From NCBI RefSeq assembly GCF_902713615.1, contig NC_052148.1:243733212-243797211 (forward strand): 64,000 bases of DNA, read 5' to 3'. Every line of letters starts with the position of its first letter. Positions within the stretch are counted from its first letter, which is position 1. Below are positions 39,459 through 48,420 of the stretch, in pieces. The position numbers were made by a program, and so were the translations under genes. Source of the stretch: Scyliorhinus canicula (taxonomy: Eukaryota). The notes below the pieces were generated by a model that made no database searches, had not been told where the DNA came from, and saw only the letters and a list, made by a program, of their open reading frames with translations.

Positions 39459-40162
39459 GGGCGGGATTCACCCCTACCCGGCGGGGCGGGGAGTCCCTGC
39501 GTAGCGGAGTGGCGCCAACCACTCCGGGGTCGGGCCTCCCCAAAGGTGCGAATTCTCCGCACCTTTGGAGGCCAAGCCCTCACATTGAGGGGCTAGGCCC
39601 GCGCTGGAGCGGTTGGAACCACACCGACAGGCGCCAAAACCGGCACAACGGCCTTTGACGCCCACCGCCCAGCGCCGGGGCTGGCTGAAAGGCCTTCGCC
39701 GGTTCGCGCATGCGCCGGTGCGTCAGCTGCCGATGATGTCACCATCGGCGCATGCGCGCTGGGGGATTCTCTTCCGCCTCCGCCATGGTGGAAGCCGTGG
39801 CGGCGGCGGAAGAAAAAGAGTGCCCCCACGGCACTGGCCCGCCCGCCGATCGGTGGGCTCCGATCGCGGGCCTGGCCACCCCCCGGGGTCCGATCGCCCC
39901 GCGCCCCCCCAGGACCCCGGGGAGCACGTTCGCGCCACCGATCCCGCCGCCACCAGAGGTGGTTCAAACCACGGCGGCGGGAGAGGCCTCCCAGCGGCGG
40001 GACTTCGGCCCATCGCGGGCCGGAGAATCACAGCAGGGCTGCTCGCCGCTCGGCGGGGCACGATTCCCGTCCCCGCCAATTCCCCGGTGGTGGAGAATTT
40101 CTGCCGTGGCGGGGGCCGGATTTTCGGCGGCCCCAGGCGATTAGGGTCGGAGAATTTCGCCC
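39459..40162. mobile_element. GC-rich Harbinger-type MITE
   Basis: GGGCGGGATTCACC / GGAGAATTTCGCCC; closely similar to 44467-46459. Confidence 0.88.
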
Positions 40163-40449
40163 ATATTTTGTAAATAGTTATACTTCTTCGGAAGGGGGAA
40201 AAGTTTCTTTAAACAGAAAGGGATATGTTGTAATGTGCCTTTAAGGGATAGTAGCATACCGTTCACTGGAAAGCAAGCATGTCATGCTCTGATGTCTCAA
40301 AGTTTTGTACCTTTGAAAGTATATTCTCATGGGTCGAGCCTCGATAACCCCGTAATGCATTTATGCAATCCCTTATGAGTGACCGATGCCTTTATGTCAT
40401 TAAGGCTCACACAACAGAGACTGAAGATAACCTTGGAGGATGATCTTGA

Positions 40450-43489: not shown

Positions 43490-44980
43490 CTGTTTTTGTG
43501 AAGGGCGCTATTTAAAAGCAAATCTCTCATTCGTTTTCTCATGTCAGCTCCTGTGGCTGCAGCAAATACTGAAAGTGTGACTTGCCAGACTGTCACTCAT
43601 TGCAATTCCTGCTGGTTGATTAGGAATCTCCTCACAGATAGCCTCAGCATCCTGGGGAGAGGAACCAGTGTCTGCATTGCTGCAAAGCTACAATGCTGCA
43701 GTGCTCACAGTGCTGCAAGTGGGGCCAACAATTGGAATGAAAGGTCACAACATCTCTGACCTCCTGAGCGCAGAGAGCTCCTTGTTCTTTGTTGGGTAAT
43801 GCGGGCGCTGAGATCACAGAACTCCATTTTGTGTAGCGGCAGTATGTATTCAGGTGCCAGAACACCTTGCATTCAGCGAGGTGACAGGAAGTGTAATGGT
43901 GTAAAGATGCTCAGCCCGCTGAGGGGCAGCACTTCGGTTGAAGCCGAGAAACGAAGAATCTTCAAATTCAGCCATTTAGCTAATCGTTCCTGTGCTGGCT
44001 CAGAGACAGGAGCTAATTGTAGCCAAGCCGAGCCTGAAAAATAAACTTTCAATTTGGAAGTGAAATTGGCAGCGATAACAACGTAAGTCAATGCCAATAG
44101 CAACACTTCTGTGTGGTTGATACAAGGGGGAATTGAAAGATGGATCTTAAAAATGAGTAATGAGTACCAGCAAAGTAATTAAGGCAATTGGAATGTTGGC
44201 ATTCATTGCAATGGGGATGAATTATTTAAGTCGTACTGCTTCAATTTTTGATCTTATTTAAGGAGAGATACACTTGCATTAGAGGCAATTCAGAGACAGT
44301 TCATCAGGCTGATTCCCGGGTGAAAAAGTTGTCTTATGAGGAAAGGTTGAGTAGATTAGGCCACAACTTATTGGAGCTTAGAAGAATGAAAGATAATATT
44401 GAATCATGAGATTCTAAGGGGCTTGACAGGATAGAGCATTTCCCCTGATGGGGACTCTAGAACCAGGGGCGGGATTCTCTCCTACCCGGCGGGACGGGGG
44501 GTCCCGGCGTAGGGGAGTGGCGCCAACCACTCCGGGGTCGGGCCTCCCCAAAGGTGGGGAATTCTCCCCACCTTTGGGGGCTAGCCCCGCGCCAGAGCGG
44601 TTGGCACCACGCCGACTGGCGCAAAAACCGGCGCCAGCAGCCTTTCAGGCCCGCCGCCCGGCAGCGGGGCTGGTCGAAAGGCTTTCGCCGGTTCGCCAGT
44701 TTCCGCCAGCTGCCGCTGACGTCACCACCGGCGCATGTGCGCTGTGGGTTTCTCTTCCGCTTCTGCCATGGCGGCGGCGGAGGAGAAAGAGTGCCCCCAG
44801 GGCACTGGCCCTCCCCCTGATAGGGGGGCCCCGATCGTGGGCCTGGCCACCGTGGGGGCACCCTCCGGGTCTGATCGCCCCGCGCCCCCCCCAGGACCCC
44901 GGGGGCCCAGTCGCGCCACCGATCCCGCCGCCACCAGAGGTGGTTCAAACCTCGGCGGCGGGAGAGGCCTCCCAGCGTCG

Positions 44981-46279
44981 TGTTTTTGTAAATTCACCAC
45001 TCTGTCTTAGAATTCCCCCTATACCAAAAAGGGCCGATATTCCAAATGGTGACAGGGATTCTCACTCCCTGACTCCGATGCAGGCTTCGGTGGGTGCTAT
45101 TCAGGTCAAACTATATTTCCAAGTTATTCCCCGGTATAACCCATACCTTCACCGAAGAATTTTACCTACTTACCCCTTAATAGCATCGATGTCCTGGGTC
45201 CTGCATTATTAAGGAAGTGAAGTAAGCTAATAACCACTTTTTCAGGTTAAGTTATTTTATTATTATACTTTTTTTCCCTTTAAGTTGCAAACACTTTCTT
45301 TACAGAAAGGAAAAACGATTAGTGATTCCGGATGCTGCTGGTTTGTTGTAGGGACCTTCAGACTCTCTCTCTCTCTCTCTTGTAGTTCTCCTCCCCTTCT
45401 CTCCTGTTGCTGTTTCTCTGTTTTCTCTGTTCTCTGTGTTCTGTCCTCTGTCCTCCCCATTGCTGCTGGTTCACTTCCTTAGGTTGGGCCAATTTTATTT
45501 CAACCTTGCCCTTCATAGCCTGAGCTTTCTTGGGATCAATAACTCTCCCATCAAGTTTGTGCTCCCCATTCAATACCCTGTCTACTCTTTCAGGATCCTT
45601 GAAGAGGATAAACCCAAATCCTCGCGAACACCCAGTCACAGGATCCATTTTAATTAAGCAGTCTACACATCTCTCCCCATCCAGAAAAGCAGTCCCTTAA
45701 ATCTTTCTTACTTGTTTCCCAGCTGAGTCCACCAACAAACCTCTTCCTTCTCATCCTCCTCATTCTTGCTGGCGTTGATCTTCGAGCCTTCCACCTCCTT
45801 GAGGGGAGCGGAGCTCCCCCGGGCCGTGCCCCGGTCACCAGCTGTTGCTGCCTCGCGTTCTGCTGCTCTCTGCTCCTGCCTCGCGCGTGGGGGGAGGGGC
45901 GAGGGGAGCCCGCGCTTAGTGCTTTTTGGCGGGCGAGATCGGGACCTCCGATAGGGGATGGGCTACGGGACTTAAAGGGGCATGGTGGGACACAACCAGG
46001 CCAATGGGTCGCCCTCTATTCAGTACATCACAGTGCTTCAACACAGCACAAAGAAATCTATGCAAACTCTCTTTTTCTTTTTCCCTTTCTCCTGCTGCAG
46101 GTTGTAATAACAATTCTGACAGACTGAAATTGACTGCATTTTTGACAGAAGAGCTGGCCACAGTTTCTGCTCTTTTCAGCTGCCACCAACCTCTTGTGGG
46201 ATCTTTTCCTGCACTCTCCCAGACCAGATATTGGCAGACTTCTATGTTTCAAACGACACATTCTGTATTTTCCAGAACA
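44981..46279 (-). mobile_element. Solo-LTR-like insertion (1.3 kb) containing a host-gene fragment
   Basis: TG...CA ends with imperfect inverted termini (TGTTTTTGTAAAT vs TGTTCTGGAAAAT). 4-bp TSD GTCG/GGCG. Splits a MITE whose uninterrupted paralogue at 39991-40006 reads CCCAGCGGCGGGACTT. AATAAA on the minus strand near 45257-45262. Confidence 0.78.
45451..45850 (-). pseudogene. Intronless hnRNP A/B-D-DL family fragment (RRM1 plus post-RRM2 tail; RRM2 deleted)
   Basis: Across frameshifts: [85 protein letters not shown]. These match the HNRNPAB/HNRNPDL pattern; the exact paralogue cannot be resolved by eye. Confidence 0.92.
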
Positions 46280-46483
46280 GGCGGGACTTCGGCCCATCGC
46301 GGGCCGGAGAATCGCCGCAGGGGCCTCGCCGATCGGAGTGGCGAGATTCCCATCCCCGCCAATTCCCGGGTGGCGGAGAATCTCTGCCATGGCGGGGGCG
46401 GGATTTTCGGCGGCCCCAGGCGATTCTCCGACCCTGCTGGGGGTCGGAGAATTTCGCCCAAGGTGGCACTATTTAAAAATAAG

Positions 46484-48420
46484 CAGTAGAAATTTCCGTT
46501 TCAGAAACAATTTGACGCTGGGACTGAATCAGTGGTGTTTTACGACAGGAAAATTGGCACCTTTCCCAGAGCAATTCCTCAACCGTTAATGGGCTACACC
46601 GGTGCCACGTGGAACAGGACCAATTCCAATGAAAAACAGTGTCTGATTCGTCGGAGTCGGTATTGACACTCGGGAGGCTGACAATCTGCAACCGCATCTA
46701 AGCACCTCACTGCCCCCACACACACTATCCCAGCCAAGAAGATGGCAGCAAGGAGAGCGGCACCCCGGTTAACAGACGCAGAGCTGGGGACCCTACTGGA
46801 TGCAGTGGAGGAGAGGTGGGCCACCCTGTGCCCCAGGATGGGGAGGAGGTTACCACCCACCGCTGCGCATTGGGCCTGGGTGCAGGTGGGAGAGGCCGTA
46901 AGCGCTGTGGGTAACACCGCCAGCACCGGTCAGCAGTGCCACAAGAAACTGCACAACCTCCTCAGGGCGCCCACACTGCCCCCTCCACCAACACCACCAC
47001 CGCCACCCCAACCTGCGGTCCAATCATGCACCTTGCCTCGCCTGGCGATGAGGTGGGCCAATCTGGCTCCCCCTACCCCCTCTCCCAACTCCAACCACAA
47101 TCCCAGGAGGACAGCAGCGAGGAGCTGGAGGAGGAAACAGACATCGATGGAAGCTCTCGACCCGCAGCCCGAGATACCGCGGAGCACCCTTCCGGGAACG
47201 ACAGTGACGTCCTGTCACAGCAGTCTCCAACATCCTCCATCATCCCAGAAATACACACCTCGATGGGGCACTTTTGTGAAGAGGTTCTTGGGGCACTATC
47301 TGGAGCGCACCACATACATGCATTTGGAGGTAGTAGGAACCCCCGAGGGGACGGACAGTCAGAGGGCAGCTCGACCCCCAGGTACTGGCTGCCAGCCAGA
47401 CAGGCCTCAAGCTTCTGGGACGGACGGTCCCATTGATTGTGGAGATGCAGGCACAGAGCCAAGGACTACATGAGGGGGTGTTGGCTACTATCCAGCGCCT
47501 GCAGATGCAGTTGGAAGGGTCGAACCACCCACAGAAGCAGGGGGTGGTGCCAACCATGCATGCCACCCAGGCCAACACCGCAAGGGTAGCATTCACTGAG
47601 GAAGCCTTGGGAGTGAAGGTTTCGGCCATGGTTCATGATGTCCAAGGCCTGGGAACTCTGTGCGGATGGCGGCAAATGCGCAAGACAGGGCAGCCATGTA
47701 TCAGGGCGACCTGGACATTGCAGCAGCGTTCCAGAGCATGACCTAGTCACAGCGGGTCATGGTTGAGGGCGTCAGCGGCATTACTCAAGAAGATGGTGGC
47801 ACAGTCGCAACGTGTGGAGGTGATGTGCTCCATGGGCTCCATGGCCGCGAGTATGAGATGCTGGTCAGGGCGGGGGTGGACCTCCAGGACTGGCAGTGCC
47901 AGGTGGAGGGGGGGCGGGGGGGGCAACAGGGGATGGCTCCGCTCGCACCACTGTCACATGGAATAGCCCGGGAGCTATCGCGCACCCCGAGGGGGGAGGA
48001 GCTGATGGGGCCTGTGACGATGACTCCTGCATGGGAGGTGCTGGAACGTCACAGTGCCTCGGACACCCCCCCCCCCCCCCCCCCCCTGTCCCCGGTGCAT
48101 CTGATGTGTAGTAGACAGAACAGGGTAGCATCACGCCACTTGGTACACCGAGGCAGCAGCTGGGCCCATCCAGGCCCGGTCGCCACTGAGGGTGGCCGCC
48201 AAAGGCACCCAGGTCACAGACGAGATTCGCAAAAGGCCTCCTGCACTCCTGATGTACTGCCTGGGGATCCACCTGGCACAGCATTAGGGCCCACAAGGCC
48301 AGGAAGACAGTCACCAGTTCAGTTGGCACGGACGCAGCTTATAGGATAGTGGCTGGGGCACAAAGTTGCATATATATATGTTCAATTGCTCACTTTAAAC
48401 ACCTGTTCACAATGTTAGAG
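46484..48420 (+). pseudogene. Decayed Harbinger element: left end plus Myb/SANT-coiled-coil gene
   Basis: MAARRAAPRLTDAELGTLLDAVEER...WVQV...CHKKLHNL at 46742-46968. Also SPTSSIIPE, QGVVPTMHATQANTARVA and LQDWQCQV in shifted frames. 3' region resembles 57600-57700. Confidence 0.88.

Follow-up and report, generated by a model that had tools for sequence, protein, structure and literature searches.

The closest described route by which part of a spliced host mRNA enters an LTR element is LTR-mediated retroposition (Tan et al. 2016, PMC5131818). In the sections of that paper drawn on here, a partial spliced mRNA comes to be flanked by retroelement sequence and replaces part of the element, the junctions show a median microsimilarity of 6 bp, the retrocopy lacks a poly(A) tail and target site duplication (TSD) of its own, and later rounds proceed as a non-autonomous element. 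These retrocopies replace internal ORFs and stay at low copy number (1-5 for Bs1). Host-gene-derived sequence inside the LTRs themselves is described, in the relevant passages of PMC10886601, for the non-autonomous TRIM elements Cassandra, Helenus and Ajax, which carry pieces of 5S rRNA or tRNA with conserved Pol III promoter motifs. On the retroviral side, prototype foamy virus has an R region of 193 nt and a splice donor upstream of its poly(A) signal (PMC3694450, in the part considered), fish foamy-like endogenous retroviruses (ERVs) are characterized in PMC5210030, and a family named ERV-Spuma.0-Sca has been published in PMC10699275.

The window analyzed here, the whole stretch of 64,000 nucleotides of Scyliorhinus canicula DNA (NC_052148.1, positions 243,733,212 to 243,797,211 of the forward strand), contains at 44981..46279, on the minus strand, what is very probably a solo LTR of the pol-less offshoot of a foamy-like ERV, with host exons likely captured once by a double template switch of reverse transcriptase (RT) and likely now carried as a decaying passenger. 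As far as the consulted sections of PMC5131818 go, it shares with LTR-mediated retroposition the partial spliced mRNA flanked by element sequence, the replacement of part of the element, the microsimilarity at both junctions (9 and 7), the lack of a poly(A) tail and TSD, and later non-autonomous rounds. Unlike those internal retrocopies, however, the shark piece lies inside both LTRs, is duplicated in each provirus and kept in solo LTRs, and exists in at least 184 copies. It shares with the TRIMs of PMC10886601, in the passages compared, a non-autonomous LTR element with host-gene-derived sequence in its LTRs, but its sequence comes from a protein-coding Pol II mRNA without evident conservation, in an element of 5-6 kb. 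A search of the open-access literature (subscription papers and Repbase/Dfam lay outside it) found no description of mRNA exons inside a shark ERV LTR.

A solo LTR within an inverted-repeat element

The element at 44981..46279 is an LTR of 1299 bp with the termini TG (44981-82) and CA (46278-79). A sequence-only reading of this DNA had proposed a TG...CA insert with a 4-bp TSD that splits a MITE, and this proposal was borne out, with one mismatch in the TSD: GTCG (44977..44980) and GGCG (46280..46283), both read on the plus strand, agree at 3/4 bp. The two parts of the inverted-repeat element (44466..44980 and 46280..46459, +) have an uninterrupted counterpart of 80-83% identity at 39493-40163 in the window, where the empty site reads GGCG (39996-39999). 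Among 48 solo LTRs surveyed, 3 with damaged ends were set aside; 42 of the other 45 have a 4/4 TSD and 3 an imperfect one. A genome search returned full-length relatives at 85-97% identity (best 40 of 2834 candidates), and because in paired copies the PBS follows the 5' LTR and the polypurine tract (PPT) precedes the 3' LTR, the minus strand is the sense strand.

Next to the split element, a 263-aa frame (46682-47473, +) has a weak Myb/SANT-like match (PF13873, E 0.03), and we presume that it may be a remnant of a Harbinger-type transposon.

Exons of an HNRNPDL-like mRNA inside the LTR

The host-derived fragment spans 45850-45450 on the minus strand, is intronless and has Pfam matches to CBFNT and RRM_1. 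Over 399 nt (an insert of ~400 nt) it is 93% identical to an intron-containing host gene on contig C22, whose exons are spread over more than 20 kb and encode the protein P0009 (96-100% per exon). The best protein matches of the fragment are shark HNRNPDL-like proteins (84-88%), so an intronless hnRNP mRNA piece had been rightly recognized, while its assignment to hnRNP A/B gives way to an HNRNPDL-like donor.

Host exons 1, 2, 3 and 5 are joined without introns. The exon 1 piece (45750..45850, -, 92/102 nt as in the host) begins at codon ~66 within a 9-nt microhomology and encodes CBFNT; exon 2 (45577..45748, -, 158/170 nt) supplies the start of RRM1, and the first ~73 nt of exon 3 (45505..45576, -, 64/67 aligned nt) its end; the first 55-60 nt or so of exon 5 (45450..45504, -, 52/55) run into a 7-nt microhomology. 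At the exon 1/2 join the frame is shifted throughout the lineage, and the window copy has an extra break near 45668. The exon 3 to exon 5 join is an in-frame skip of 219 nt that removes RRM2. The fragment had been said to stop mid-CDS; it is indeed truncated at its 3' side, but it also starts within the CDS and skips RRM2. As had been noticed, it has neither a poly(A) tail nor a TSD of its own.

Splicing as the source of the RRM2 skip was rejected, for the break in exon 3 has no GT donor and a short shared word lies at the join. Capture of the host promoter or 5'UTR was rejected as well, the promoter-side sequence having no match (best scores 24-36, shuffle maximum 34). The exon 1 piece is closest to the Ala/Gly-rich stretch of this genus (17 proteins compared by eye), and on this ground a capture in another shark lineage was rejected above the genus level. 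The genome also holds an ordinary intronless retrocopy of the same hnRNP gene (L035, C8:45999883-46003101) and one of an hnRNP paralogue (L034, C13).

Empty LTRs, loaded LTRs and a probable single capture

Counted by exact-pattern matches, which give lower bounds, the family has at least 669 LTR starts, sister subfamily included. Exon 2-3 junctions number at least 103 and exon-1-only junctions at least 81, so that at least 184 LTRs, a minority of the family, are loaded with host exons; empty junctions number at least 135, of which 4 lie in empty x loaded recombinants. Among the LTRs examined, each motif recovers 82-91% of its class and none has both loaded motifs; by these counts, loaded LTRs make up between about one quarter and one third of the family. 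A count of 182 for the exon-1 pattern was discarded, all 14 checked matches of its 'C' variant (14/14) being an unrelated repeat. The fragment thus recurs in many copies without a hidden TSD or poly(A), and the flanking 1.3 kb is repetitive.

Among 146 distinct LTRs, a non-random sample, we distinguish class B, with part of exons 1-4 (n=4); class A, with exons 1-2-3-5 (n=19), to which the window copy belongs; class A', which lacks a further 48 nt including RNP1 (n=38, plus 4 recombinants); class C, with exon 1 only (n=45); the empty class D (n=30); and others (n=6). By their sequences, classes B, A, A' and C form a deletion series.

The fragment-free LTRs that the sequence-only reading had thought worth looking for exist as class D (~970 bp) and in the sister subfamily, and they are the ancestral state. 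All six sister copies are empty (6/6), five of them with 95-96% Pol identity (5/6), and in a U5 tree of 101 rows, built from the last 330 nt with 3' LTRs excluded, the sister subfamily attaches among class D LTRs; this tree is weakly resolved (13/93 branches starred) and blurred by recombination. Where loaded LTRs carry the insert, empty ones have a native spacer of ~29 nt, bordered by two words, of 9 and 7 nt, that also occur in the host mRNA; both words fall at poly-Gln (CAG) runs. Within the AG-rich part, a random point pair would show such microhomologies with a probability of 3.5e-4 and 2.2e-3, as estimated from one empty copy picked after inspection. The insert appears to have replaced these ~29 nt between the two microhomologies, which is the signature of template switching and supports the earlier proposal that the piece was acquired from spliced mRNA in this way.

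The host match starts within CDS nt 190-229 in all 110 loaded LTRs scored (110/110), and 62 of the 65 RRM-bearing LTRs share one frameshift; for these two reasons we infer a single capture by double template switching, the mechanism that PMC5131818 describes for internal retrocopies. A whole exon 1-5 insert was absent from every copy (113/113 candidates scored), and the full ancestral insert is accordingly pieced together from classes A and B. The four recombinants examined (4/4) are empty x loaded, and mosaic haplotypes are also seen.

In the sequence of events that we favor, a host HNRNPDL-like mRNA would have been co-packaged with retroviral RNA, and RT would have jumped from the AG-rich tract of the LTR onto the mRNA and back at the two poly-Gln runs. 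Reverse transcription would then have placed the insert in both LTRs, pol-bearing partners with empty LTRs would have mobilized the loaded element in trans, and short-repeat deletions (of RRM2, of RNP1 and of all RRM1) would have trimmed the insert during spread. Recombination between the two LTRs would have left solo LTRs such as the one at 44981..46279.

A foamy-like retrovirus family and its pol-less offshoot

Proviruses with empty LTRs are 9-10 kb long and encode RT, RNase H and integrase. Their best named viral Pol matches are simian and equine foamy Pol (28-29%), and in an RT tree built without a lokiretrovirus reference the family groups with foamy viruses and fish sequences (support 83/92, unstarred). 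The PBS junction, with 50 exact matches, contains what we take to be a PBS of the tRNA-Lys type; the family further has a GGGTG PPT:LTR motif and a 4-nt TSD. On its sequence features, then, we class it as a foamy-like ERV (class III). After pol there are only frames of 92-222 aa, without a Pfam match; PMC10699275 annotates an env CDS in this position and, in the part considered, states that no Env domain was detected.

The family resembles the fish foamy-like ERVs of PMC5210030, as far as the sections compared reach, in its tRNA-Lys-type PBS, GGGTG PPT:LTR junction, 4-nt TSD and foamy-like Pol; it differs from them in that no env was recognized, in a weak Macro-domain match in ORF1, and in a poly(A) signal that lies upstream of the LTR splice donor. 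Lokiretroviruses (PMC7947760, the description there) were also considered; neither a fusion-protein-like env nor an smc gene was recognized in the shark family. ERV-Spuma.0-Sca has in the compared parts of PMC10699275 the same LTR start, promoter-side motif and empty junction, LTRs of 866/869 bp and a provirus of ~9.2 kb that corresponds to our class D copy L124; judged by two LTR motifs, the empty junction and the sizes, our family is this published one. The LTR listed there is the empty form and differs from the loaded offshoot; the term 'hnRNP' gave 0 matches in two supplement files of that paper, and the compared parts make no mention of the pol-less loaded offshoot.

We examined 59 loci. 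Both LTRs are loaded in 27 proviruses, and every one of these (27/27) has an internal region of 2.8-3.4 kb that retains ~50 aa of pol. Pol-bearing loci number 15; 14 of them carry empty LTRs only, and the exception is a TSD-mismatched chimera. By this comparison the pol-less loaded element derives from the full element by deletion. The fragment stands in both LTRs of paired proviruses, and its spread by an LTR lineage had been correctly foreseen, but a 'whole LTR family' was an overstatement, for only the pol-less offshoot is concerned. Loaded LTR pairs are 0-2.4% apart (median 0.86%), the median corresponding to ~9 million years at the rate of 0.5e-9 assumed in PMC10699275 (in the part considered). 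Pol-less proviruses with empty LTRs exist as well (L115, L131, L132 and L164).

Several further observations concern individual proviruses. ORF1, in the gag position, has a weak Macro-domain match in L112, L114 and L128 (PF01661, E 0.002-0.008, below cutoff) but none in L108 or the sister copy L188; a second captured host domain is a possible reading of this Macro-like region. ORF1 and pol lie in one frame with a single stop between them in L114 (4638-4642), L188 (4270-4274) and L189 (3894-3898), which suggests readthrough and sets them apart from mammalian foamy viruses, where pol is spliced. L113 (C9:32991800-) has an empty 5' LTR and an exon-1-loaded 3' LTR that are 6.7% apart with matching TSDs, and may reflect either gene conversion or a nested event. 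L148 and L106 (C10:124070900-) form a tandem LTR-internal-LTR-partial array with a shared middle LTR. A frame of 140-175 aa just before the 3' LTR (L114 8878-9390), without a Pfam match, is found in pol-bearing and pol-less proviruses alike.

A cluster of A>G changes

In the part that encodes RRM1, classes A and B share twelve differences from the host, and 8 of these are A>G, against 9/61 among later variants (p=5e-4). The fixed A>G changes fall into two groups of four, one within 13 nt and the other within 17 nt, and all have a 5' U or A (8/8, p=6e-3), in a test made after the pattern was noticed. They arose on the LTR side, since several alter residues conserved across sharks. ADAR prefers a 5' U or A neighbor. 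Editing of duplex RNA by ADAR is a general mechanism (PMC5075021, in the part considered), and the cluster is likely to stem from such editing of a presumed RNA duplex, in which case the insert would have been hyper-edited A-to-I early on. An error bias of RT is a possible alternative source of the A>G excess.

Layout of the LTR and its RNA reads

Motifs were surveyed in 152 LTRs including 6 sister copies. On the minus strand of the window LTR, a presumptive U3 (45940..46279), its border set from TTTAAG, has no host promoter or 5'UTR match. It holds a CCAAT-like ATTGG (46001..46005) kept in 63/152 LTRs and 0/6 of the sister subfamily, followed by TTTAAG (45971..45976), a TATA-like candidate promoter found in 130/152 LTRs, 6/6 sister copies and 0/4 of class B. 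Beyond the insert come an LTR-native AG-rich tract of varying length (45360..45449), which also occurs in empty and sister LTRs, the polyadenylation signal AATAAA (45256..45261; 140/152), and a splice-donor-like GTAAGT (45168..45173; 146/152) in the putative U5. The promoter-like motifs and AATAAA pointed out earlier are all present, although the CCAAT box is poorly conserved. Only one AATAAA is conserved, and the donor follows it at a distance of ~85 nt, an order unlike that in prototype foamy virus (PMC3694450, in the part compared), from which the shark LTR also differs in its apparently longer R.

Four raw-read runs from two studies (X19, single-cell; X20-X22, bulk), of each of which 1-34% was read, were mapped at 94% likeness to L106:1-2200, a class A' copy taken from the genome, with the sense strand set by host mRNA reads. 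Across L106 1258/1259, 15 nt past AATAAA, the X19 depth drops from 62 to 5, and as 117 reads lie at 1233 ahead of this drop, the reads end within a few bases. Most X19 3' reads continue upstream as in sister subfamily LTRs; a single truncated locus as the source of the pile was rejected, because they follow natural LTRs of that subfamily. This marks the poly(A) site at window ~45240, ~15-18 nt downstream of AATAAA and downstream of the insert. In X21 and X22 the bulk sense depth drops from 14 to 3 past GTAAGT. Large X19 piles at L106 149-444 and 1999-2200 lie upstream of A-rich tracts and likely result from internal priming. Antisense exceeds sense over the presumptive U5 (L106 1259-1480), with a depth of 20-32 in two bulk runs, and 31-32 molecules start at the PPT edge.

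We regard it as probable that the insert lies in the R region, as had been proposed: the RNA 3' end downstream of the insert agrees with that proposal, but the start expected near 45940 did not appear, for the four runs show on L106 neither a visible start site nor a depth step near the start predicted from TTTAAG. R would then be unusually long, with a median of 711 nt in class A and 416 nt in class D (~700 and ~415). The same capture could instead have placed the insert in a long U3, with transcription starting near or below AATAAA and a short R, an arrangement that we hold to be possible but distinctly less probable. It fits foamy virus LTRs, which combine a long U3 with an R of ~190 nt (PMC3694450, in the part considered), as well as the missing step-up of reads and the lack of TTTAAG in class B, and a TATA-like A/T run precedes AATAAA in 132/146 non-sister LTRs. 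The sister subfamily, however, supplies reads that end after AATAAA, and there the A/T run is found in 0/6 copies and TTTAAG in 6/6; the retention of TTTAAG (130/152 overall) together with the lack of this run in the sister LTRs favors the long R. The last 230 nt, moreover, contain neither AATAAA nor ATTAAA in 150/152 LTRs. Markers in U5 track the empty or loaded status (r2 up to 0.56) more closely than most of those in U3 do (mostly under 0.15, one 0.49), but the U5 linkage may stem from one founder crossover, and since crossovers occur throughout the LTR this mapping of the U3/R border is only suggestive.

Coding frame and possible functions

We regard the insert as likely a decaying passenger. 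N/S is 9:3 for changes fixed before the A/B split (ratio 0.74) and 47:14 plus 3 stops for later variants (ratio 0.83), these counts being small. These dN/dS values of 0.74-0.83, the serial loss of the insert and its low expression give no backing to selection on an RRM1 peptide or on a regulatory RNA, either of which had once been suggested. The RRM1 frame is ATG-led and open in 50/65 RRM-bearing LTRs, yet 35 of those 50 are without RNP1, and the window copy is broken.

That the insert is useful to the element, as a single-RRM peptide or as an RNA aiding packaging, export or sparing of the pol-less offshoot, seems to us unlikely. A coding role could also explain the open frames and the deletions of 219 and 48 nt, both of which are in frame: the frameshift brings upstream ATGs into frame with RRM1, 13/19 class A LTRs are open, and RRM2 is excised cleanly. 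Loaded LTRs are also more numerous, at 184 or more, than the empty ones of class D, for which 135 junctions were matched, including 4 in recombinants. With dN/dS near 1, on the other hand, conserved RRM residues have been altered, the RNP1 octamer was lost via the 48-nt deletion in 38/65 RRM-bearing LTRs, and at least 81 LTRs that keep exon 1 only have lost RRM1 and kept spreading; the four empty-LTR proviruses without pol also speak against it, and fragment-bearing transcripts are few. Similarly doubtful is a wider scenario in which the captured, ADAR-edited RRM would be an LTR-borne accessory in a ~700-nt R; each solo LTR would produce it, as a short RNA or a single-RRM peptide, and it would have favored the pol-less offshoot or would feed small RNAs against the host hnRNP gene.

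Still less likely do we find an action of loaded LTRs on the host gene, as a sense decoy or a source of antisense or small RNA. Some 200 near-identical copies (93%) in both orientations would lend themselves to it, X19 sense reads are of LTR type at 14/22 and 15/16 for two diagnostic sites, and the clustered A>G changes would imply RNA that was once double-stranded. Reads in X20-X22 are, however, nearly all of host type (6/6, 16/16 and 19/22 at site one; 17/17, 56/57 and 36/37 at site two), and antisense depth over the fragment is 0-5, partly host strand leak. An origin from an ordinary LINE-made retrocopy, such as the one at L035, that inserted into a single LTR before being amplified is highly improbable, for the fragment has neither poly(A) nor TSD, both its ends lie within the CDS, and comparison with the empty site contradicts it, LTR sequence having been replaced rather than interrupted, with microhomology at both ends.

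Discussion

LTR-mediated retroposition is known; the new twist here is that the captured coding exons lie in the LTR itself. Capture and spread can here be observed in part and otherwise strongly inferred; a function is unsupported, and the importance of the finding is limited to that extent. Taken together, these results indicate that host coding exons can enter the LTR, the one part of a retrovirus that every cycle duplicates and that persists in solo form. A single capture can in this way give rise to hundreds of exon copies, all of them adjacent to a promoter and a poly(A) signal. The genome keeps all stages of this process, from the donor gene and the empty ancestor to the loaded forms, the recombinants and the deletion series, and thus documents cleanly how a foamy-like lineage captured a host gene, along with what is likely a fossil signature of RNA editing.
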